Source: an uncultured Thermoleophilaceae bacterium (GTDB taxonomy: Bacteria; Actinomycetota; Thermoleophilia; Solirubrobacterales; JACPNS01). From it: a stretch of 64,000 nt of DNA. The translations under genes were made by a program, and so were the position numbers. The stretch covers positions 138,596 through 202,595 of the forward strand of contig CAYVWQ010000002.1 of assembly GCA_964455545.1 (NCBI GenBank), written 5' to 3'. Shown one piece after another: positions 5,242 through 50,226 of this stretch; position 1 is the first letter of the stretch; each line of letters opens with the position of its first letter. The notes beneath the pieces are model-generated. The model saw nothing but the letters and a program-made list of their open reading frames with translations, was not told where the DNA came from and did no database searches.

Positions 5242-7281
5242 GTGCCGCGCGTGAATAGGCCGGATTTCCCGCGGATCAGGGCGACCTTGCGCTACCGCGC
5301 GAAGGCGATCTATGACTCCTTGCAACGAGCGTGGATTCGACTGCGCTATCGCGGTCCGCGGTACATGATCAAACGCATCGCGCTCGAGGCAGGTCGCCGG
5401 ACCCCGATCGTTCGCGAACGAATCGCCAAGCGCGCTCAGCTCGTGGACGATCCGTCTGCCACGCGCTGGTTTGCCAAGCATGCACGGCCGGTGACCGTTG
5501 TCATCCCAACGTTCGGTGGCGCAGAGATCACCGCGAAATTGGTCGAGAGCATCCGTGCGACGACTCCTGCAGAACTCGTCAGGATTGTCGTCAGCGACGA
5601 TGCCGGTCCGGCTGCGGAGGCCGAGCAGCTGAAACTGATCACCGGCATCGACGAGCTGTTGTTGAACGAGACGAACGCCGGCTTTGCGGCGAACGTCAAT
5701 CGCGGTCTGCGCCTGCGCGATGGGCGCGATGTAGTCGTGCTCAACAACGATGTGGTCGCACACGAGGGATGGCTCGAAGCGCTGCAGTTCGCGGCGCACT
5801 CCGATCCGTCCTACGGCATCACCGGACCGATGCTGCTCTATCCCGACGGTCGCATCCAGTTTGCCGGCACCGTCCGCAATTTCGCCGCCCCGCAATGGTT
5901 CGACCATCGCTACCGGTTCCAAGAGGCCGACTTCGGTCCGGCGAACGTCGAGGCTCCGGCGCTGGCGATAACCGGTGCATGCATGTACATCCGCAGCGAC
6001 GTGATCGAGGCGGTCGGCGAATTCGACGAGGCCTACCCGATGGCGTTCGAGGACGTCGACTACTGCATTCGCGCGTGGAACGCCGGTTTCCAGTCGCGCT
6101 ACGTACCCACCGCGCGGCTCACTCACCACGAGTCGATTACCCGCGGAAAGGAAGTCGGTGAGCGCGAGCAGCGGTCGATGGATCACTTTTGGGAGACCTG
6201 GGGCGACTGGTTCGACCGTCGCGAACCGCGTACGGAAGATGGCAAACTCCGCGTGATCTACGTGACCGAGGACACCGGTGTCGGCGGCGGGCACCGCGAC
6301 ATTTTTGAGCACCTGAACCGGCTTCAGGACGCCGGTCATGAGGTCGCTCTCTACACCCTGCACGAGGAGCCGGGGTGGTTCCCGCTCAAGGCTCCTGTTC
6401 ACACTTTCAAGGACTACGACGAGCTGACTGCGGCGCTCGCCAAAGAAGATGCGATCAAGGTCGCGACCTGGTGGAACACCGCCGAGAAAGTCCTCAGCGC
6501 GAGCTACGCGAAGGGCATCCCGGTCTTCTTCGTGCAGGACATTGAGACCTCGTACTACGACGGCAACCCGTCGGCGCAACAACGCGTGCTCGCGTCGTAC
6601 CGCCCGGAAATGAACACGATGACGATCTCTGACCGGTCGCAGCGCAAGCTGGCCGAGCTCGGGGTCGATGCGGTGCTCATCCCGCCGGGGATCGACCTCG
6701 ACGTTTTCCGGCCGCTAGGGGTCGAGAGGGACAAGAACGTTCTCTTGGCGCTCGGCCGTTCGAATCCGCTGAAGAACCTCCCGTTGACGATCTCAGGCTG
6801 GAAGGCGATGGGCTCTCGGCGTCCGGAGCTTTGGATGTTTGGAGTCGAACCCAGAATCGGTGCCCGCTACGGCGCGAAGTATTTCACCAGCCCGTCCGAC
6901 GAAGAGGTCAACGAGCTCTACAACAAGTGCGGCGTCTTCATTCAGAATTCCACGCACGAAGGCTTCTGCCTACCGGTACTCGAAGCGATGGCGACCGGCG
7001 CGCCCGTGGTGTGTACGGACATGGTCGGAAACCGCGACTTCTGCGTCGACGGGGAAAACTGTGTGATGGTCGACTTCACGCCGGAGTCCGTCGCGGCCGG
7101 TGTGCGGCGAGCGCTCGACGACGAGGCGCTGCGCGAGAAGCTTCGCGTGACCGGGCCCGAAACGGCCGCCCGGTTCAGCTGGGATATCCGCATCGGCGAG
7201 GTCGAGGCGTTCTACGAATCGCTCACCGAGCCCGGACCGATGGCCCGCAACACGGACGACGCCCAGGCCGGCGTTGGTTGA
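5242..7281 (+). CDS. Bifunctional glycosyltransferase, N-terminal GT2 fused to C-terminal GT4/GT1-type domain
   Basis: GT2 half: VTVVIPTFGG..VSDDAGP..VVLNNDV..FEDVDYC. GT-B half: LRVIYVTEDTGVGGGHRDIF..STHEGFCLPVLEAMATGAPVV. The start is uncertain: in-frame GTG at 5242 or 5251, or ATG at 5365. Confidence 0.8.
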   Translation: MPRVNRPDFPRIRATLRYRAKAIYDSLQRAWIRLRYRGPRYMIKRIALEAGRRTPIVRERIAKRAQLVDDPSATRWFAKHARPVTVVIPTFGGAEITAKLVESIRATTPAELVRIVVSDDAGPAAEAEQLKLITGIDELLLNETNAGFAANVNRGLRLRDGRDVVVLNNDVVAHEGWLEALQFAAHSDPSYGITGPMLLYPDGRIQFAGTVRNFAAPQWFDHRYRFQEADFGPANVEAPALAITGACMYIRSDVIEAVGEFDEAYPMAFEDVDYCIRAWNAGFQSRYVPTARLTHHESITRGKEVGEREQRSMDHFWETWGDWFDRREPRTEDGKLRVIYVTEDTGVGGGHRDIFEHLNRLQDAGHEVALYTLHEEPGWFPLKAPVHTFKDYDELTAALAKEDAIKVATWWNTAEKVLSASYAKGIPVFFVQDIETSYYDGNPSAQQRVLASYRPEMNTMTISDRSQRKLAELGVDAVLIPPGIDLDVFRPLGVERDKNVLLALGRSNPLKNLPLTISGWKAMGSRRPELWMFGVEPRIGARYGAKYFTSPSDEEVNELYNKCGVFIQNSTHEGFCLPVLEAMATGAPVVCTDMVGNRDFCVDGENCVMVDFTPESVAAGVRRALDDEALREKLRVTGPETAARFSWDIRIGEVEAFYESLTEPGPMARNTDDAQAGVG

Positions 7282-40478: not shown

Positions 40479-40551
40479 GCCGACGTAGCTCAGTTGGTAG
40501 AGCACTTCACTCGTAATGAAGGGGTCCCCGGTTCGAATCCGGGCGTCGGCT
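40479..40551 (+). tRNA. tRNA-Thr (anticodon CGT)
   Basis: Hand-folded cloverleaf: acceptor GCCGACG/CGTCGGC, D arm GCTC-AGTTGGTA-GAGC, anticodon arm CTTCA-CTCGTAA-TGAAG, T arm CCCGG-TTCGAAT-CCGGG. 73 nt. CCA is not encoded. Confidence 0.9.
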
Positions 40552-40579
40552 TCAAGCTAGTTCCCGGCCTCCCGCTCGA

Positions 40580-41455
40580 ATGCGACCAACCGAACTCGCA
40601 AGTCAGCTTGGAATCTCACCAAAGTCGTTGCGTGCGTGGTTGCGCGCGACGTTCCCGCGGACATCCGATGAACATGGGTCTGAATGGGTTCTGACGCAGG
40701 AACAGGTGGAGGCTGCCACCGACTACTGGCGACCGCGGGATAGTTCGAAGAGCGCAGCGCTTCGTTCACGGCGACACGGCTGGGTAGAAGATGAGGTCAT
40801 ATTGGCTCTCGAGCTGTATGTCCGCGAAGGCGTTGGAGCGTCTCCCGATTCGGTGAACAGACTCAGCTCGATTCTTCGGGGGCTGCCGATCGAAAAAGAG
40901 CTAGCGAAGGACGAGGCGTTTCGCAGTCCATCGAGCGTGAAGTTCAAGTTGGGAAACCTTGACTCAATCGCCTCAGGCGGCGCCTCAGGGTTTGCAAACG
41001 CAAGCATGCTTGATCGAGAGATTTGGTTTGCCTACGCGGACGAGCGCGAGCAGCTCGAGATAGATGCCATTTCGATTCTCGAGAACATTGAGGAGGCTGG
41101 TGAGGTCGGCCAGTTGGAGCTCGAAGAAGAGCCGCCAATAGAGGGCCGCATCGTCGCCGCCGTGCACAAGAGGAGAGAAAGAGACTCCCGCCTGCGAAGG
41201 CGGAAGATCCAGGCCGCCGAAACACTCGCCTGCGAAGCCTGCGGCTTTGATTTTGAGGACTCTTACGGTGAAAGGGGCGCCGGCTTCGTTGAATGTCACC
41301 ACCTGGTTCCACTCGCGGAACTCGGAGCGAGCGGTCGTCGTACTTCGTTGGACGACCTTGCGTTGCTTTGTGCCAATTGCCATCGAATGATTCATCGAGA
41401 GCGCCCCTGGCTAACCCTGCCTGAGCTCAGGGCGTCGATAAATCGGCGCATCTAG
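40580..41455 (+). CDS. HNH nuclease of the predicted restriction-endonuclease type (COG3183-like)
   Basis: C-terminal HNH/zinc motif CEACGFDFEDSYGERGAGFVECHHLVPLAE..LLCANCHRMIH. The middle region WVEDEVILALELY..FRSPSSVKFKLGNL is typical of this group. Confidence 0.75.
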   Translation: MRPTELASQLGISPKSLRAWLRATFPRTSDEHGSEWVLTQEQVEAATDYWRPRDSSKSAALRSRRHGWVEDEVILALELYVREGVGASPDSVNRLSSILRGLPIEKELAKDEAFRSPSSVKFKLGNLDSIASGGASGFANASMLDREIWFAYADEREQLEIDAISILENIEEAGEVGQLELEEEPPIEGRIVAAVHKRRERDSRLRRRKIQAAETLACEACGFDFEDSYGERGAGFVECHHLVPLAELGASGRRTSLDDLALLCANCHRMIHRERPWLTLPELRASINRRI

Positions 41456-41522
41456 TAGCCGCGACCCGGGACTGCCTAGGTCTCGAGGCAGGTTCGCATT
41501 CAGATAGCTGGAACCAGAACAC

Positions 41523-42521
41523 GTGAACGAGGAACAGTTGGATCCCGCCGACTTTGCCGTTCGGCCGCAGCAAGCGCTCGATGGCGAAATCACGCGCGTA
41601 GTAGAGGCGATCAAGAGTGCGGATCCGGACGGCTCGCGCTTTGCCGAGACGATCCGAGCTACCTACGACCAGATTTACGACGGCCAGCACACCGGTCGCT
41701 ACTCCGTTGAGGAGTTGATGAAGACCGAGAAGACTCACATCGGAACGATTGTCGAGATCAATCTCCAACGTGAATTTGAGTGGGATGACGGAACGCTGTT
41801 CGATTACACCATCGCCGACGCCGACATCGACTGCAAATTCGCACAGAAGTTTGGCTCATGGATGATCCCGCCTGAGCTCTATGACAACAATGGACTAGCG
41901 CTCGTGGTTTGGGCCGACGATGCTGTAGGCAGATGGTCCGTTGGAGTCGTGCGGACTACCGACGACGTGCTCCGGGAAGGCAAGAACCGAGACGGCAAGA
42001 AGTCGCTTCGCGCGGGGTCGCTTGAGACCGTGACCTGGATTTGGCGAGACGCACATCTTCCTGAAAACACGCTCCTTCACCTCGATCCTTTCATTCGAGA
42101 TCGTGTTCTCGCCGCTGAGGGCTCGAAGCAAAACAGCGGTGCGGGCCGTGTTCGCGCGCTATTTCGCCTCGTCCAAGCACGAGTGATAAACCGTGCGACT
42201 GTTGTGACTGTTGCGCGCCAAGATGACCCCATGAAGCGCGCTCGAGAGGTTCGCGAAAAGAAGTGGCTCGGGAGGGAAGGAATCGTTGTTCTGGGTCACT
42301 GGAATGAGCACGCGGACATTGCAAGAGCTCTCGGACTCCCGGTTCCTTCGCGTGGCAGTTTTGTGAGCTCACGTGTGGTCGTCGCCGCACCTGACTGGAG
42401 CGGTCCTTCCGCCCAGATCGGTCAGGATCGATTTCGAGTCGCGACGGAGTCAGATCCTGTGACTCCCGCCCCCAGCGTCCGTTGGCGGCCACCCAGAAAC
42501 GACGACGAGTCCGCTGCTTAG
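41523..42521 (+). CDS. Type II restriction endonuclease, NaeI-like family
   Basis: YDGQHTGRYSVEELMKTEKTHIGTIVEINLQREFEWDDGTLFDYTIADADIDCKF and VTVARQDDPMKR match my recollection of the NaeI family core. A C5-MTase lies convergently adjacent. Needs HMM confirmation. Confidence 0.65.
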   Translation: MNEEQLDPADFAVRPQQALDGEITRVVEAIKSADPDGSRFAETIRATYDQIYDGQHTGRYSVEELMKTEKTHIGTIVEINLQREFEWDDGTLFDYTIADADIDCKFAQKFGSWMIPPELYDNNGLALVVWADDAVGRWSVGVVRTTDDVLREGKNRDGKKSLRAGSLETVTWIWRDAHLPENTLLHLDPFIRDRVLAAEGSKQNSGAGRVRALFRLVQARVINRATVVTVARQDDPMKRAREVREKKWLGREGIVVLGHWNEHADIARALGLPVPSRGSFVSSRVVVAAPDWSGPSAQIGQDRFRVATESDPVTPAPSVRWRPPRNDDESAA

Positions 42522-42579
42522 TGGCGGGCAACAGACGGGTCTGCGAGCGACCTCTGCGCCTTAGCGGCAGATGACGCCC

Positions 42580-43677
42580 TCACGCCGCGAGGGCTGGCAC
42601 GCGGGTGTGCCCTGCTTCGAGATGCGACGCGCGCAGTGCCTGGGAGATGGCGACACCGACCGCGTTCGCCACGGGGGGTGGGAATGCATTCCCGACCTGT
42701 CGATAGCTCGCGGTTTTCTTGCCCGCGAAGTTCCAGGAATCCGGGAACCCCTGAAGCCGGGCAGTCATGCGAACTGTGAGCCGAGGCATCCCTTGAAACT
42801 GCACCGTGGGCGGGAAGTCGGCGAGCCCTCTCCCGTCGACTCCAAGTGATTCCCACTCCGCCCGCGCACGAGTTGGTCCTAGGTCCGGGCCACCGTGCTT
42901 CTTTGATCCTCCAACGAGAGTGGGACCAATCTTGTCGGCTTTCGATTTCCATTCTTCAGCACCGATCCACCCGTCTTCAGCGAGCAGGTCAAACAGGAAC
43001 TCGCCCACCGTTGGGGTGGACTCGGGATTTCCTTCCGGCCACATGAAGTGTTCCCATGCATCGGGGCGAAGCGCGACGAGTATCGCTCGCGGCCGAAGCT
43101 GCGGAACTCCGAAGTCCGCCGCGTGAAGCAATTTCCATTCGGAGACGTAGCCAAGCTCCTCGAGTTCCTCTTGGAGATCGTTGCGGTAGTCGTCGAACTT
43201 GGGCGAGAGCAGGCCTCTAACGTTTTCTAGAAGGACTGCTTCGGGCCGACATTCTCTCGCAAGCCGCAGCGCCTGTGGAAAGAGATCGCGTTCGTCGGCT
43301 CCGCCGAGCTGTTTTCCTGCAAGCGAAAACGGAGGACAAGGAACGCCTCCTGCGAGAAGGTGAATTTTTCCTCGCCACGGAGCCGCGGAAAATGCTCGAA
43401 CGTCGCCGGGTCCGCCACTCGCGTCAGTTACGCCGGGCGCAGGGCCAATCACGTTCCAGTTTGGTCGGTTCAGACGGAGGGTTGCTGCTGCCCAGTGGTC
43501 TATTTCGACTACTGCCTCGTGAGAGAACCCAGCTTCCTCTAGGCCTAGTGCCTGGCCGCCTGCACCGGCACAGATCTCGATCGAAGTCAGCTCTCCAACA
43601 AACGTTTCGGCGTTCGGCAAGCTCTGGGGATCGCGTGTCCACGGGGGATTGTCTGAAATCAAACTCATTTGCTCCAA
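42580..43677 (-). CDS. DNA (cytosine-5)-methyltransferase
   Basis: Motif I EICAGAGGQALGLEEAGF, motif IV GGVPCPPFSLAGK, motif VI LLENVRGL, plus QVGNAFPPPVA. The start is TTG 43677 or ATG 43668. Confidence 0.9.
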   Translation of the reverse strand: MEQMSLISDNPPWTRDPQSLPNAETFVGELTSIEICAGAGGQALGLEEAGFSHEAVVEIDHWAAATLRLNRPNWNVIGPAPGVTDASGGPGDVRAFSAAPWRGKIHLLAGGVPCPPFSLAGKQLGGADERDLFPQALRLARECRPEAVLLENVRGLLSPKFDDYRNDLQEELEELGYVSEWKLLHAADFGVPQLRPRAILVALRPDAWEHFMWPEGNPESTPTVGEFLFDLLAEDGWIGAEEWKSKADKIGPTLVGGSKKHGGPDLGPTRARAEWESLGVDGRGLADFPPTVQFQGMPRLTVRMTARLQGFPDSWNFAGKKTASYRQVGNAFPPPVANAVGVAISQALRASHLEAGHTRVPALAA

Positions 43678-43988: not shown

Positions 43989-44738
43989 TCAGCCGTACGC
44001 CCCAAGCTCGACCCCATCGGGCATCCGCTCGATTGCACCCGCGATCTCCTCGATCTCTTGGCGACTCAGTTTGGTCTCGAGCGAATAGAGCCAAGCGGAG
44101 AGCGTGTCGCCGGCGACATACGTGACGTTGTCAATGCTCAAGTGGTTTTGAGGGAAATCGGCCCAAAGCACTATCACAGCCTGCACCCATGGATTCGTAG
44201 AAGTCGAGCTCTTCAGCTCGCGATTGATTTGTGCCGCGGTTCGTCGGGCGGCATCGGGTAGGCGCGGTTGCGCGAAGCCGTCCCTCCGGACCACCCCGTC
44301 GACGATCTCGACCATGCCACTCCAGTTCTTGGAGTCGATGGCAAGGACGCCACCCGGACCAACCAAAACATGGTCGACGTTCTTTCGGCCAAGCGCGCGG
44401 TCGTGGACGGTCTTCCATCCTAAGTCGTTGAGTTTCTCGAGCTCAATCGCAGTCGACGCCTCGCCTTCCGCTCCCCGGCGCCAGTTTCCGACTCGCAGCG
44501 GAGGAATGGTGAACGCCACTAACGAGGCAAGGAGTCCTACTCCGGACATGAGTCCGAGCAGGAAGCTCAAGAACGGATTCACGTCAAAGAAGATCATCGC
44601 TCCAACGGCGACGACTGGTAGGAGGAGCAGATAAATGAGGGAGTACCGATTCTCCCACCACCACTCATTCATCTGGCGCCGATACTCCTGCTCACTTGAA
44701 GCGCCTGCCGCCTTCTTATCGAGCTTGCTTGTCCACAT
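43989..44738 (-). CDS. NERD (nuclease-related) domain protein with N-terminal TM helices
   Basis: GAEGEASTAIELEKL..VHDRALGRKNVDHVLVGPGGVLAIDSKNWSG. Start at ATG 44738. Confidence 0.7.
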   Translation of the reverse strand: MWTSKLDKKAAGASSEQEYRRQMNEWWWENRYSLIYLLLLPVVAVGAMIFFDVNPFLSFLLGLMSGVGLLASLVAFTIPPLRVGNWRRGAEGEASTAIELEKLNDLGWKTVHDRALGRKNVDHVLVGPGGVLAIDSKNWSGMVEIVDGVVRRDGFAQPRLPDAARRTAAQINRELKSSTSTNPWVQAVIVLWADFPQNHLSIDNVTYVAGDTLSAWLYSLETKLSRQEIEEIAGAIERMPDGVELGAYG

Positions 44739-44830
44739 GGCTCCACTATCGGCAACTGATGGACTCGTCAGAAAACCACTTCGCCGAACGGCCACCCCTG
44801 GCAATCGCTCATCCAAACCAGGAGACCAGT

Positions 44831-45370
44831 ATGCGAAAGGCCCTACTCGCAGCATTCGCGCTGCTCATGCTCTTCGGCCTCACAGCAGAAAGCTGCGAGA
44901 CCACCACCAACTCCACGCCCGACGCCTCGAGCTCAAGTGACTCGAAGAGTGAGGCAAAGACCGCCGCGAAGGTCGGCGACACGCTGACCCTCCACGACTC
45001 GAACGACAACGAGTACAAGGTCACCCTCACAAAGTTCCTCCGCAACGCCGAAGGCGGCGAGTTCGATGAGCCGGATGCCGGCAACAGGTTCGTCGGCGTC
45101 AAGCTCACGATCAAGAACGTCAGCGAGGCGACGTACTCCGACTCGCCGTCGAACGGATCTGTCCTGATCGACACACGCGACGACCAGTACGACGCGGCGC
45201 TCTTGACTGACGGGAACTGCGAACTCCCTGCCTCGGTGAAGATCGCTCCAGGCGATCAGCGCCGCGTCTGTATTCCGTTCGAAATGCCGAAGAAGCGCAT
45301 GGCCGCGAAGTTCCAGTTCGCGCTCGACTCCGGGTTCTCCGACGAGAACGGCGAGTGGTCGCTGCGATGA
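44831..45370 (+). CDS. DUF4352-like lipoprotein
   Basis: Signal plus lipobox-like MRKALLAAFALLMLFGLTAESC, RBS GGAGA. Beta-sandwich pattern VGDTLTL..YKVTLTKF..FVGVKLTIKNVS. Confidence 0.7.
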   Translation: MRKALLAAFALLMLFGLTAESCETTTNSTPDASSSSDSKSEAKTAAKVGDTLTLHDSNDNEYKVTLTKFLRNAEGGEFDEPDAGNRFVGVKLTIKNVSEATYSDSPSNGSVLIDTRDDQYDAALLTDGNCELPASVKIAPGDQRRVCIPFEMPKKRMAAKFQFALDSGFSDENGEWSLR

Positions 45371-45912
45371 GCTCGCGGCAGATCGAGACCTTGAAGAAGC
45401 AAGTCGGCCTGGCGCTCGTGCGCCAAGGCCGGCTGCTTCTCGACATCGACCAGGCGCTTGCCGAACAGCGTCCGACCGGACCGTCAAGCGAAGACACGCG
45501 CCCGGCGATGACCACCGAACTCACGGTCATCCTGTCCCACCACGCGATCGACCGTTACGGCGAGCGCACCGGCCGTGAGCTGGGCCGCACTCTCCAGGTG
45601 GAGGAGATCCGTCACGTCTGGCCGCACGCCGAAATCACGTCGGTACCTCCGGACTGGCACAAGCCGACGCGCGAGCACCCGGCCGGCACGCTCTACGCCG
45701 AGATCGCCGATCTGCTCATCCCGCTCGTTCCGTACGAGCGCTCATCAAACACCTATGTCGCCACGACGGTCCTGTCGAAGCTCGGCGACCGCGGCGCGAA
45801 ACGCGCAGGCTCGAAACTGCCGCGTCGTGTCCGATCGGGCGCGAAGTTCAAGCGGCGCAAGTGGTCGGACGGCCCCCGGCGCCGGCCGGAAGACTTCGGG
45901 TTCGACGCCTGA
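45367..45912 (+). CDS. Hypothetical protein (weak DUF4258/RelE-fold toxin-like motif, basic C-terminal tail)
   Basis: ATGA overlap with the DUF4352 stop. SHHAIDRYGERTG..VEEIRHV..YVATTVLSK is reminiscent of HA..R..ER toxin families. This is weak evidence. Confidence 0.45.
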   Translation: MSSRQIETLKKQVGLALVRQGRLLLDIDQALAEQRPTGPSSEDTRPAMTTELTVILSHHAIDRYGERTGRELGRTLQVEEIRHVWPHAEITSVPPDWHKPTREHPAGTLYAEIADLLIPLVPYERSSNTYVATTVLSKLGDRGAKRAGSKLPRRVRSGAKFKRRKWSDGPRRRPEDFGFDA

Positions 45913-46218: not shown

Positions 46219-46503
46219 TCAGCGCACCCGCCCCTGGTAGTCCTGACCCTCATCGTCGTCATAGCCTGCGCTCTCCCGCTCGGAGTAGCTCGAGACAACC
46301 GCGTCATACGTCGCCTCGTCCACGCAACCGATCGTCGGACTCGTGACGACGCAGGACGGGTCGTACGGCTCAGCTGCAGGTTCGGCCGGACCGGGATCGC
46401 TGGTCGCTGCCAGGTAGATGAGGACGCCGGGAAATCCGAGCATGAGGACGATGACCGTCACGGTTGCAGCGACATCTGCTTTGTCCGGAAGTTGAAGTTT
46501 CAC
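46219..46503 (-). CDS. Small single-pass membrane protein (hypothetical)
   Basis: GTG 46503 gives VKLQLPDKADVAATVTVIVLMLGFPGVLIYLAATS, followed by an acidic C-terminus. Low support. Confidence 0.35.
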   Translation of the reverse strand: MKLQLPDKADVAATVTVIVLMLGFPGVLIYLAATSDPGPAEPAAEPYDPSCVVTSPTIGCVDEATYDAVVSSYSERESAGYDDDEGQDYQGRVR

Positions 46504-46538
46504 TTCAACTGGGCCGGTCGGCGTCAGACTGGTCTGAC

Positions 46539-47099: not shown

Positions 47100-47117
47100 C
47101 GCGCCGCAGCCTGCGTC
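47094..47117 (+). terminator. Possible hairpin terminator overlapping the stop of the RNxxxH gene
   Basis: CTGACGC gccgcagcct GCGTCAG. Confidence 0.35.
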
Positions 47118-47204
47118 AGATGTGATCCTGCCGAGACGGCCTTCGAATCGGCCTCTCTGCCCACGGCCACCTCGCTCTCAACCGGGCAGATCTCGGAAAA
47201 GAAA

Positions 47205-48116
47205 ATGTTCAAGAAATCATTGTTTGCCGTCGCGGTCGCAGTGAGCGCGATCGCGGCGGTTCCCGTCGGCGCCAACGCCGCACCTTGCTATTCATCGACG
47301 CCGACCGGCAACGTCGTCTACGACGCGACATCCGACTCGGACTACGGCCTCGCACCCGAGCTCGCCGCGATGCGCGTGGGGATCGACTCTGCATGCAACG
47401 CGACGTTCTCGTACGACGTGCTCGGCCAGTCGGCTCCGATCCCCGGCGACTTCTACTCGTGGTGGATCGACAGCGACAACAACGACTACACCGGGGCGCC
47501 GACCGGATTCCCGGGCGCCGACTACGCAGTCAGCCTGCTCTCGACCGGCAGTGCCGCGATCTCTCAGTGGAACGGTTCGAGCATGGTCTCGAGCGGTGCG
47601 ATCACGCGCGCCGGCACTTTCGCCGTGGCGACGTCACTGTCGAGCATCAATGCCACGCCGGGAGTGCCGATCTGGGTCGCCGGAGGATCCTCCTGGAAGG
47701 GGAGCTCGGGCACGACCTACTTCGATTTCCTCCCGGATCTCGGATATTCCTGGCTCGGCCTTACTCCGACTTTCTCGACGACCCCACCGGCCGGCAGCGG
47801 CGGAGGCGGGAACAGCAGCGCCCAGTGTGTCGTGCCGCAGGTGCGCGGCTACACGCTTCGCCACGCCAAGTCGCGAATCCGCGCCGCCGGCTGCAAGGTC
47901 GGTGCGGTCAAGAAGCGCGTCGCCGGCCGTTCGCGGATCGGGCTTGCGATCGGCAGCAGCCCCTCGAAGGGCTCTCACCTGAGCGCCGGTGCCAAAGTCA
48001 CCATCTACGTCGGGAAGCGCGCACCGCGTCGCCAACGGAAGTCGCTCAGCGCGAGCGGCTCACCCGATCTGATCGCCGCCCACCTGAACCAGCAGCTCGC
48101 CGCGGCGAGGAAGTAG
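47205..48116 (+). CDS. Secreted protein with C-terminal PASTA-like domain
   Basis: Signal MFKKSLFAVAVAVSAIAAVPVGANA. C-terminus VVPQVRGYTLRHAKSRIRAAGCKVGAV..SPSKGSHLSAGAKVTIYVG. Confidence 0.7.
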   Translation: MFKKSLFAVAVAVSAIAAVPVGANAAPCYSSTPTGNVVYDATSDSDYGLAPELAAMRVGIDSACNATFSYDVLGQSAPIPGDFYSWWIDSDNNDYTGAPTGFPGADYAVSLLSTGSAAISQWNGSSMVSSGAITRAGTFAVATSLSSINATPGVPIWVAGGSSWKGSSGTTYFDFLPDLGYSWLGLTPTFSTTPPAGSGGGGNSSAQCVVPQVRGYTLRHAKSRIRAAGCKVGAVKKRVAGRSRIGLAIGSSPSKGSHLSAGAKVTIYVGKRAPRRQRKSLSASGSPDLIAAHLNQQLAAARK

Positions 48117-48153
48117 GCGCTGACATCCGGGCGCAGACCGAGGATTGTTGCCC

Positions 48154-48876
48154 ATGACCGACCTGACCGACCCCCACATCCGCGACGCCACCGCAGCAGC
48201 TCGCGCGCTGCGCGAGCGACTCGGCGTTCCGATGGTCGGTCCGATCCCGAGAGACATCCTTGCCCTGGTTGAGGATGACCTCGGGATCCCGGTCTGCGTT
48301 CTGGAGATGCCTGACGGGTTGGCGGGCGCCTATCTGAAGGTGCGCGGCCAAGACCTCATCTTTCTTCAGGCGACCGACTTCCCGACGCGTCAGCGGTTCA
48401 CGCTCGCGCACGAGGTCGGCCACCACGTCCTCAATCACAAGGGCCGGGTCGACGCGAGCAAGGACGTCGGCGGCAGCCCGGTCGATCCGAACGAACAGCA
48501 GGCGAACTACTTCGCGAGTGAGTTCCTCGTGCCGGTCGAGGCGATGCGGGACTGGCTCGCGCGAAACAGCGACGGCCAGCTCGACCTGCGTTCGCTCGTG
48601 ATCGCCGCCGACCATTTCCAGGTCAGCCCGCCGGCGATGCTCTACCGATTGAGCAAGGGCGAATTCGGCTTCTCCGAGGACGAGATCCAGGCTCTGTGGA
48701 CCGAGGTCAAGGCGAGACGGCACCTGCCCGTGGTCGAGGAGCTCGGGATCGGAGCTGGCGACGACCAACTGGCAGTGATTGAGGCGAGCAGGAGCTGGCC
48801 GAGGGTGCCCGCGGCGATCGACGCCGCCAAGGCCGCCGAGGTCGCGGCCTTCATCAACTCTCAGCGATTGAAATGA
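48154..48876 (+). CDS. ImmA/IrrE-family zinc metallopeptidase (DUF955-like)
   Basis: HEXXH in FTLAHEVGHHVLNH, followed by EQQANYFASEFLVP. ATG 48154 is preceded by AGGA. Confidence 0.75.
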   Translation: MTDLTDPHIRDATAAARALRERLGVPMVGPIPRDILALVEDDLGIPVCVLEMPDGLAGAYLKVRGQDLIFLQATDFPTRQRFTLAHEVGHHVLNHKGRVDASKDVGGSPVDPNEQQANYFASEFLVPVEAMRDWLARNSDGQLDLRSLVIAADHFQVSPPAMLYRLSKGEFGFSEDEIQALWTEVKARRHLPVVEELGIGAGDDQLAVIEASRSWPRVPAAIDAAKAAEVAAFINSQRLK

Positions 48877-49610
48877 CTTCCGCCGCGACAGCGATCCGCG
48901 CGTCTGGCAGAATGGCCGTCATCGAAATTGAGGATGCGACAGGCGTGCAGATCGAGTCCGTGGGCGGCGGTGAGCCGGCCGCGGATCTCGGCATGCTGCT
49001 CCGTCGCGCCAACCGGTTCCGCAGCCATCGCGGTCCGGAAGCCGCCCGCAGGTTGACCGAGACTTGGCAGGAGATCTGGGCGCTCGAGGCCTACGCGATC
49101 CGCCAGCAGGTGATCAGCAAGGGCTACTCGGTGACCGGCAACGCATGGGTGAACGAGAGCGACGTCGACGACGTGCTCGCCGACCTCATGCTCGACGCCA
49201 CCAAGATGTTCATTGCCTTCCGAGGAATCGAGGTCGGGCAGTTCCGCGCAGCGATGAACAAGCGGATCCACTGGACCGTCATCAACTACATCCGCAAGGA
49301 CCAGTCCAACAAGGCCAAGCCGGTCGACCCTGCGGCGTTCGACCCGAACGGATTCGACGAGACAGACTCCCGTCACGCCGAGATCGCCGGGCTGGCGGCC
49401 AAGGGCGGCGCCGAGGACCGCGCGGATTTCAAGGAGACGCTCTCGGGCATCACTGAGCTCGAGCCGCGGGCGGCCGATGTGGTGACACTCCGACTGTCGG
49501 GGATGTCCGCGAAAGAGGTCGCCGAAAAACTCGATCTCTCTCCCGCCAATGTCGACCAGATCTTCTCGCGCAGCGTCAGGACCATGCGAAAGTTGTTGAC
49601 CGATGACTGA
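48873..49610 (+). CDS. Sigma-70 family (ECF-like) RNA polymerase sigma factor
   Basis: Region 2-like FRAAMNKRIHWTVINYIRKDQ. Region 4 HTH: VVTLRLSGMSAKEVAEKLDLSPANVDQIFSRSVRTMRKLL. ATGA overlap with the peptidase gene. Confidence 0.75.
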   Translation: MTSAATAIRASGRMAVIEIEDATGVQIESVGGGEPAADLGMLLRRANRFRSHRGPEAARRLTETWQEIWALEAYAIRQQVISKGYSVTGNAWVNESDVDDVLADLMLDATKMFIAFRGIEVGQFRAAMNKRIHWTVINYIRKDQSNKAKPVDPAAFDPNGFDETDSRHAEIAGLAAKGGAEDRADFKETLSGITELEPRAADVVTLRLSGMSAKEVAEKLDLSPANVDQIFSRSVRTMRKLLTDD

Positions 49611-50226
49611 TGTGGCAACACTGCTCGGCGAGTTCGTCGACGATTTGAACGCCGGTCGTGGACCCGAGGCGGCGGCGTTCATCGAGAAGGCCGAGAGCGA
49701 AGCCGACCGCAAAGAGCTCGCTCAGGGAATCGAAGCGGTGCTCGCGTTCGCCCCTGACGGTGCCCGCCAAGCGGCCGCTGCGACCAGCCCGATCGACGCG
49801 TCGCAACTCGCAGCGGCGATCGAGAATGCGCTCGAGTCGACCAGCGAGCTCGCCGAGGCAGTGCCTGGCTGGCGCGAAACCTTCGGCGCATCGGTGGCGG
49901 ATTTCGCCCGTCGCGTGCTCACGGCCGGCGGATTGAGCACGACCGACGAGAACGTCGCGGTCGCCACGCAATGGGTCACCGGCATGGAGTCGGGTGCCGT
50001 AATCGCAGAAAGTCTCAGTGACCGGGCGATGCGGGCCGTGTCGACGGTCCTCGGCTCGGGGGGCGAAGAGCTCGACTTCGCGTTCAGGGCCGAGAACGAC
50101 GTCGCCGACGATGAGGTCGCGGCGAAGCTCGGTGGGATCGCTGAAGCACTGAGCGATGCACTGGTCGACGCGTCTGCGGCGGACGAGGACGTCGAAGCCT
50201 GGTTCGCGACCGACGCTCCGGCCTGA
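49603..50226 (+). CDS. Acidic hypothetical protein (possible sigma-associated partner)
   Basis: 8-nt overlap with the sigma gene. Ala/Glu/Asp-rich. No known motif. Confidence 0.5.
   Translation: MTDVATLLGEFVDDLNAGRGPEAAAFIEKAESEADRKELAQGIEAVLAFAPDGARQAAAATSPIDASQLAAAIENALESTSELAEAVPGWRETFGASVADFARRVLTAGGLSTTDENVAVATQWVTGMESGAVIAESLSDRAMRAVSTVLGSGGEELDFAFRAENDVADDEVAAKLGGIAEALSDALVDASAADEDVEAWFATDAPA

Follow-up and report, generated by a model that had tools for sequence, protein, structure and literature searches.

Zinc metalloproteases of the Peptidase_M78 family are encoded beside XRE-type proteins in the ImmA-ImmR, IrrE/PprI-DdrO and CapP-CapH systems, and to our knowledge such pairs have been described only as devices that remove a DNA-bound repressor. 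Sigma factors of the extracytoplasmic function (ECF) type owe their release chiefly to partner switching, to phosphorylation or to proteolysis at the membrane, regulated proteolysis of an anti-sigma factor being exemplified by RseA (DegS/RseP), RsiW (PrsW/RasP) and RsiV. In the type III-E CRISPR system Craspase-Csx30-RpoE, a dedicated protease cuts a sigma-bound partner and alters sigma activity. Here we describe a locus in a 64,000-nucleotide (nt) stretch of DNA of about 65% GC from an uncultured Thermoleophilaceae bacterium (contig CAYVWQ010000002.1, positions 138,596 to 202,595; the whole stretch is hereafter the window), in which an M78 protease gene is followed by the genes of an ECF sigma factor and of an acidic protein that we call XRE'. 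These genes recur together as a regulatory set, and the locus is probably a protease-released sigma switch. The component families are each known; their combination and the architecture of XRE' were not described in the literature searched, nor was any description of the trio found there, as an earlier reading of the DNA (the initial annotation) had supposed.

The three open reading frames (ORFs) lie where the initial annotation had placed them. All are intact, and their GC content at third codon positions (GC3) of 0.78-0.85 is of the coding type, which supports them as real genes. They were compared with three sets of related loci: a near clade (L001-L008 and L011-L016) whose sigma factors are 40-79% identical to that of the window, a distant clade of five loci (L017-L021) whose XRE' proteins are 25-30% identical, and 80 further loci from one metagenome scan (the soil loci, 262 kb, 67-78% GC). 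The named relatives of the window proteins come from metagenome-assembled genomes of Solirubrobacterales and Thermoleophilaceae. The trio was kept in 13 of 13 annotated loci, in two gene orders, and over all sets three arrangements can be seen: protease-sigma-XRE', sigma-XRE'-protease, and sigma-XRE' with a convergent protease. The first is found in L012-L016 and L011, where the ORFs abut or overlap, and with two genes between protease and sigma in L001; in L002 and L003 a remnant of an XRE tail, 69 amino acids (aa) long, precedes the protease. The closest relatives, L004-L008, carry in order a second, canonical XRE of 116 aa directly upstream of the protease, the protease, a protein of 158-165 aa, a hydrophobic ORF of 38 aa, sigma and XRE'. 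In the distant clade, sigma and XRE' are followed by a short M78 protease in all five loci, XRE' thus preceding the protease as immR precedes immA. Among the soil loci, sigma lies directly upstream of XRE' in all 59 with enough sequence, and the M78 gene lies directly downstream of XRE' on the opposite strand in 30 of 32, with gaps mostly of 3-80 nt. The 8-nt overlap of sigma and the third gene in the window, as first reported, is part of a general pattern: in 10 of 11 annotated loci the end of sigma and the beginning of XRE' share 4 or 8 nt, and among 53 unique soil loci at least 24 have ATGA or GTGA at the junction. The trio persists down to about 25% identity while the other neighbors all vary. 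Because the adjacency survives three arrangements, it argues for a shared function, and this is our main argument. The tie that the initial annotation had seen between the protease and both the sigma factor and its acidic partner therefore holds; as for the order of the three genes, which might have been expected to recur, the association is conserved elsewhere but the order itself varies.

The first protein, of 240 aa, is a CapP/ImmA/IrrE-type zinc metalloprotease. It passed the M78 profile search (PF06114) with E=1.1e-18 (67.7 bits; cut-off 22), its best match in PADLOC is capP (E=9.8e-23), and its matches in the PDB are IrrE (3dte) and CapP (7t5t). In a four-protein alignment the catalytic residues H86-E87-x-x-H90 and E114 are intact and invariant, the last within the conserved stretch E114-x-x-A-N-x-F-A, and by analogy with H97, E98, H101 and E128 of CapP the residues H86, E87, H90 and E114 would form the zinc-ligand set. 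Since homologues begin MTELTDPHI, the ATG at 48154 and not the TTG at 48145 is the correct start. At its other end the window protease is shortened, terminating in QRLK where L001, L004, L006 and L008 have QRLD(S/T)VLR..A, and it covers the capP profile only at positions 6-151 of 242. Proteases of the distant clade are also short (179-194 aa in L017-L021). In three of them (L017 6656-7195, L018 7007-7567, L019 6678-7262) a Cys stands exactly 13 residues past the second His, as C114 follows H101 in CapP, and acidic residues come after it, in agreement with the published cysteine-switch loop of CapP.

The initial annotation held that a sigma factor had here taken the place of the XRE repressor. 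This view has to be given up, as the acidic third protein is itself a divergent XRE-fold protein of the CapH/ImmR kind. XRE' of the window (207 aa) has no direct match in Pfam or NCBIfam. With a profile of its close homologues (E 0.001 or better, representatives of clusters at 50% identity), a family of at least 158 clusters was collected, nearly all of them full-length at about 200-220 aa; the named members are Thermoleophilia, the loci have 67-78% GC, and the module is widespread in soil Thermoleophilia-like Actinomycetota. Among 71 diverse members, 30 matched the Pfam helix-turn-helix (HTH) model HTH_31 (best E=1.2e-8) and 7 matched HTH_3, while one, P0183, passed the HTH_31 cut-off (27.7 versus 27) over residues 85-155. 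An AlphaFold2 model built on the alignment of the 71 sequences had a mean predicted local distance difference test score (pLDDT) of 82, with residues 1-55 and 81-150 each at 91-97. Its PDB matches in Foldseek were nearly all of the XRE fold (ClgR, HipB, C.BclI and the N-terminal domain of CapH, 7t5u), with template modeling scores of 0.5-0.75 on the target and E-values all above 0.8, so that these matches support the fold only jointly with those in Pfam.

From its N-terminus onward, XRE' has an acidic domain (residues 1-55), a linker, an HTH of the XRE fold (88-151), a loop containing A-F161-R162, a helix (170-187) and a C-terminal DVEAWF. Of the longer stretches, only the loop at 153-166 falls below a pLDDT of 50. 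Within it R162 is present in 70 of the 71 members and is preceded by F, Y, M, L or W in 59, and the C-terminal motif, E-V-D-x-[LW]-F in the family, has its F201 in 70 of 71. CapH is cut by CapP at F82-R83, just past the HTH and before the protease-docking helix (PMC13228613). The same succession of XRE HTH, F-R site and C-terminal helix is seen here, and we take the third gene to encode a substrate module like that of CapH/ImmR, extended by an N-terminal domain, in which F161-R162 is a candidate cleavage site; it is this conserved F/Y-R motif, placed in a flexible loop, that marks XRE' as a candidate substrate of the protease. The canonical XRE of L004-L008 aligns to XRE' over the HTH and the F-R-N-E-G-G tail (hhalign E=0.0018). 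In contrast to CapH, the partner is twice as long, with the additional N-terminal domain and the C-terminal DxWF/LF motif, and it is translationally coupled to a sigma factor where capH is divergent from an immune operon. The N-terminal domain, which the stand-alone XRE found alongside XRE' in L004-L008 lacks, is the best-conserved part of the protein, with L8, G18, P21, R36 and L39 conserved across the family, and the net charge of the whole is -28 in the window and -15 in the family mean. It was also observed that residues 8-40 (window 49624-49722) have the consensus L-x-x-F-I-D-A-W-N-A-G-R-R-P-x-V-x-D-Y-L; this may resemble a motif at the N-terminus of Ser/Thr kinases, from planctomycetes and myxobacteria, that are tied to ECF sigma factors.

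That the middle gene encodes a sigma factor, as originally proposed, was confirmed by matches to TIGR02937 (sigma70-ECF; 44.4 bits versus a cut-off of 42.9, residues 91-241 on model positions 25-164) and to Sigma70_r4_2 (33.1 versus 25.7). Relatives' sigma factors score 47-58 bits on TIGR02937, and those of the distant clade match TIGR02937 or Sigma70_r2/r4. Sigma70_r2 was undetected in the window protein; most relatives matched it weakly, and L020 passed its cut-off. The best subfamily match, Sig-70_plancto1, reached 36.6 bits, far under its cut-off of 183.75. Groups with an unexplained HTH neighbor, ECF130 and ECF201, are named in the reclassification of ECF sigma factors (PMC7826278).

Upstream of the sigma genes, in most loci, stands a conserved motif of two blocks whose layout is that of an ECF-type promoter. 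In the near clade it reads GTCAGA-N15/16-CGGCC and in the soil clade the consensus is TGTCAGA-N16-CGAC, the -10 block varying with the sigma clade (CGGCC versus CGAC). The motif resembles the elements of Bacillus ECF sigma factors, with -35 TGTAAC/TGAAAC and -10 CGAC/CGTC. The window has three exact copies of GTCAGA-N16-CGGCC where 0.51 would be expected; they lie within 2.4 kb of one another beside the cluster (Table 1), and that at 47115 is the only one directed into the run of PASTA, protease, sigma and XRE' genes. In the near clade, 21 of 22 exact copies precede a coding-like ORF at 7-14 nt, a leaderless geometry, at 37-63 nt or, in one case, at 119 nt. The soil loci hold 68 copies in their 262 kb against 1.6 expected. 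There a copy stands just before the sigma gene in 35 of 45 loci, the spacer is 16 nt in 33 of 36 unique cases, and the first in-frame start codon follows CGAC by 9-11 nt in 34 of 36. A reading of the motif on the opposite strand (GGCCG-N16-TCTGAC, pointing at the protease) was considered, under which many copies seemed antisense at the 3' ends of genes; it was dropped in view of the start codon that follows the soil consensus and the fixed distances at which 21 of 22 copies precede an ORF. A degenerate copy upstream of the protease (48098-48124) became irrelevant once the strand was corrected.

Several small genes beside copies of the motif were observed. The 94-aa ORF of the window at 46219-46503 (minus strand) has one transmembrane-like stretch; as the longest ORF called on the opposite strand overlaps it, a simple ORF listing would pass it over. 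A protein of 185 aa (window 45355-45912, plus strand), likely a regulon member, is homologous (tblastn E=6e-17) to a 224-aa gene that intervenes between protease and sigma in L001 and also sits after a promoter copy. The conserved hydrophobic ORF of 38 aa (MVEFFNTVGIAVCALYVV...KMFSR; L004 5778-5894, L006/L008 about 5822-5938) begins 8 nt past a copy, between the gene for the 158-165-aa protein and sigma, and is absent from the window. The 158-165-aa protein itself (L004 5261-5758, L006/L008 5306-5782), which follows the protease, has no match in Pfam or PADLOC; its N-terminus LYVDTTVFINL looks PIN-like by eye and would make a three-gene set with the XRE and the M78 gene. In soil loci L023-L095 a conserved gene ends inside the sigma promoter or just before it (0-60 nt upstream), and it is of two types, one ending in ...KSRKRGRG and the other a zinc-ribbon-like protein with CxxC...DLPQW.

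The junction between protease and sigma deserves a separate account. The protease stop overlaps the start of the longest sigma ORF in an ATGA at 48873-48876, which the initial annotation took for translational coupling. The overlap is there, but it is specific to the window. Sigma homologues of 239 aa from four lineages begin MP(V/I)IEIGDA and align to the window ATG at 48912, which by this alignment is the conserved start; the coupling may thus be an artifact of taking the longest ORF, and the two genes may in truth be 35 nt apart. The DNA is homologous to that of L006 and L008 until a break; homology ends at about 48866 and restarts at 48897, some 700 nt of theirs being skipped. A promoter copy lies between protease and sigma, or in the 3' end of the protease gene, in L001, L002 (a GTCAGG variant), L004-L008, L012 and L015, and in the window none is found between the two genes. 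Most likely, therefore, the ATGA came from a deletion in the lineage of the window; on the simplest reading, this deletion took the last codons of the protease, any intervening genes and the promoter of the sigma gene itself, and so created the overlap. The DNA block TCTGGCAGAATGGCCGTCATCGAAATTGAGGATGC at the sigma start shares 92% of its positions with L004 and 87% with L001 (36-39 nt compared), despite a protein identity to L001 of only about 41%. RNA structure at this site was considered and rejected (RNAalifold -0.84 kcal/mol, no covariation). Where other loci have the sigma ATG, CTG, ATC or ATT was observed in L012 (about 6329-6340), L015 (about 7040-7050) and L002 (about 5985-5990); in these loci either an upstream ATG is used, or a near-cognate start codon beside the protease stop.

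These observations can be assembled into a scheme. The sigma factor would recognize GTCAGA-N16-CGGCC, and this promoter would drive the PASTA-protease-sigma-XRE' run together with two neighboring units for envelope proteins; a sigma factor that drives its own operon would make the circuit self-amplifying. XRE' would be made in step with sigma through the overlapping stop and start codons and would keep it off, most likely by binding through its acidic N-terminal domain in the manner of an anti-sigma factor. The CapH/ImmR-like module, with its HTH, exposed F161-R162 and helix, would serve as the substrate of the protease, so that upon some signal the protease would cut XRE' at or near F161-R162, sigma would be freed, and the regulon and the operon would be turned on. 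An autoregulated sigma factor calls for a brake acting after translation, and no conserved partner other than XRE' is co-transcribed with it. The separate canonical XRE kept for the protease in L004-L008 suggests that XRE' has a different job. We judge the chance about even that the sigma factor is autoregulated, restrained by the N-terminal domain of the co-translated XRE' and released by M78 cleavage of XRE'. With somewhat less than even confidence we propose, tentatively, that XRE' represents a new class of cytoplasmic anti-sigma factor, a new sigma-binding domain fused to a CapH/ImmR-like module, through which an M78 protease links a signal to the release of an autoregulated ECF sigma factor.

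Alternatively, XRE' might be a DNA-binding autorepressor of the CapH, ImmR or DdrO kind, cleaved by the protease, with sigma as derepressed cargo and the N-terminal domain serving for oligomerization. This is the mode of action of all characterized M78-XRE pairs (PMC13228613), and the XRE-fold HTH and CapH-like F-R site of XRE' would suit it, as would a partial inverted repeat in some promoter copies (TGTGACA-G-TGTCAGA or TCTGAC..GTCAGA). However, the only blocks conserved upstream of sigma are two asymmetric elements, 16 nt apart, with the start codon 9-11 nt on, which is the signature of a promoter and not of a dyad operator. The left half of the apparent palindrome falls short of 70% conservation, and no dyad is conserved across loci. 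Furthermore, XRE' is extremely acidic overall, its start overlaps the sigma stop almost universally, as happens in sigma/anti-sigma pairs, and a separate canonical XRE is available to the protease in L004-L008. We regard autorepression as unlikely, though it is the main rival. It seems much less probable still that the protease acts on sigma itself, by processing or inactivation, with XRE' as an accessory: an R-F-R-(S/N) motif is present in the N-terminal region of the sigma factors of the window and L004-L008, and FRNQGGPDAAK of the L004 sigma resembles FRNEGGADAAR of the XRE tail, and other near-clade sigma factors have L-R or V-R at that place; yet the motif is missing from those of the distant clade, and the F/Y-R that is invariant family-wide belongs to XRE' and not to sigma. 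The stretch in question is the usual G-D-x-x-A segment of ECF region 2.1, and the resemblance may therefore be due to chance. In L004 it involves sigma residues of about 40-55 (RFRNQGGPDAAK) and residues 84-95 of the XRE, around the putative F-R cleavage site of the latter, and could be a chance likeness or a second protease site.

The three genes could also be together by mere inherited synteny, or as a toxin-antitoxin-like M78/XRE pair beside a sigma gene, with no shared mechanism and with the window cluster as a decaying remnant. M78-XRE pairs are indeed annotated as toxin-antitoxin or antitoxin-like as well (NCBIfam spr1629 family), the deletion in the window removed the sigma promoter and shortened the protease, and the XRE' family is so far found mainly in one lineage. 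It is difficult to reconcile this with a trio that stays adjacent through three orders and orientations down to about 25% identity while its other neighbors change, or with window ORFs that are intact and coding-like in GC3, and we consider it improbable.

Release of sigma by cleavage of XRE', which we prefer, also meets with several observations that weigh against it. The protease lacks the GAF sensor domain that binds single-stranded DNA in CapP and IrrE, and in the window the cysteine switch is lacking too, a Lys standing at the Cys position; the activating signal can therefore not be transferred from CapP or IrrE. The HTH of XRE' is near neutral (mean net charge +0.9), so that DNA binding by XRE' is possible. 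In Pfam, NCBIfam and the PDB, no anti-sigma domain already known resembles its N-terminal domain: profiles of the zf-HC2/ASD class I-II and RskA types in Pfam and NCBIfam matched none of the 71 members, no Cys or His motif of the form H-x3-C-x2-C was found in the domain, and comparison of XRE' profiles with PDB sequences gave no match for the whole protein and noise only for the N-terminal domain. That this sigma factor would read GTCAGA-N16-CGGCC is suggested by their association. Finally, since the sigma promoter copy was lost in the window, the circuit there may have been rewired or be in decay.

As compared with RseA, RsiW and RsiV, the locus has in common a sigma factor co-transcribed and translationally coupled with its putative inhibitor, a candidate two-block promoter before its own operon, and an activation that would consist in proteolysis of the inhibitor. 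In contrast, XRE' is cytoplasmic, with neither a transmembrane segment nor a recognizable anti-sigma domain, and a dedicated cytoplasmic M78 enzyme is encoded in the module in place of membrane site-1 and site-2 proteases. With ImmA-ImmR and IrrE/PprI-DdrO it shares an M78 gene beside an XRE-type protein that would be inactivated by a single cut C-terminal to the HTH; their substrates, however, repress mobile-element or repair genes, whereas the output here is a sigma factor. NCBIfam includes a CAS_III-E_sigma model, and the sigma factors of these loci match NF041236 weakly (E=0.036 to 4e-5), far under its cut-off. Craspase differs further in being a caspase-like CHAT protease guided by RNA; protease and partner are unrelated to those described here, and no CRISPR genes are present at these loci.

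If the proposed release is true, a protease switch of the damage or infection type has been rewired to control a whole sigma regulon, by means of a new anti-sigma architecture and by a third route of sigma activation beside regulated membrane proteolysis and partner switching. The model predicts that cleavage at F161-R162 releases transcription from GTCAGA-N16-CGGCC. Its parts are compact and probably orthogonal, with possible use in synthetic circuits. Moreover, an apparently orphan ImmA-like protease can have its XRE partner two genes off and beyond detection by Pfam.

Table 1. Positions of the three genes, the promoter motif copies and other features in the window.
Feature	Position	Strand	Remarks
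M78 zinc metalloprotease	48154..48876	+	PF06114
ECF-superfamily sigma factor	48912..49610	+	Longest ORF from ATG 48873; TIGR02937, Sigma70_r4_2
DNA block at sigma start	48902..48936	+	Kept in all near-clade loci
XRE' protein	49603..50226	+	Overlaps sigma by 8 nt at 49603-49610
Promoter motif copy	47115..47141	+	63 nt upstream of PASTA gene
Promoter motif copy	44767..44793	+	37 nt upstream of DUF4352 lipoprotein gene (ATG 44831)
Promoter motif copy	46512..46538	-	8 nt upstream of leaderless 94-aa membrane ORF (46503 down to 46219)
Secreted PASTA-domain protein	47205..48116	+	PF03793 E=2.1e-9; GC3 0.84
NERD-domain protein	43989-44738	-	Flanks region
PIF1-like helicase	55360-56748	-	Flanks region

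The surroundings of the cluster point in two directions. On the one hand, what the predicted regulon would produce in the window is a set of envelope or secreted proteins, namely the lipoprotein, the membrane peptide and the PASTA protein. On the other hand, the cluster is located in a tRNA-Thr-adjacent island with a restriction-modification system, the NERD protein and the PIF1-like helicase, and the window flanks and the neighbors in related loci are genes of DNA-repair or conflict type. The PASTA gene is outside the conserved module and is not found at this position in any related locus. The initial annotation had also suggested the GH64-like gene after XRE' as a target and had allowed for an XRE repressor just outside the cluster. 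The former did not bear up: its GH64 match is under the Pfam cut-off (24.5 versus 27), the gene is absent from all related loci examined and so is not conserved beside the module, and the window scan gave it no motif copy of its own. No terminator-like site was found between XRE' and this co-directional gene, nor on the plus strand after the PASTA-protease-sigma-XRE' run until 52690, and transcription may read through into it. As to the latter, L004-L008 have their canonical XRE upstream of the protease; in the window, tblastn with the XREs of L004 and L006 at E up to 1 detected no relic. No match was obtained by tblastn with the soil-clade member P0183 against phages, or with P0183 and the window XRE' (P0018) against plasmids.

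Further genes of this kind were observed nearby. At window 40479-43677 a tRNA-Thr (CGT) is followed by DNA of lower GC (0.59-0.62) with genes for an HNH endonuclease, a C5 cytosine methylase and a restriction enzyme of the NaeI family (E=2e-104); this has the look of a tRNA-adjacent island running on into the cluster studied here. Related loci carry AdnAB-like helicase-nucleases, RNaseH_2-AAA_11/12 helicases and a RecD2-like helicase, as well as MGMT, ARPP-1/REase-ARP and MmeI genes.

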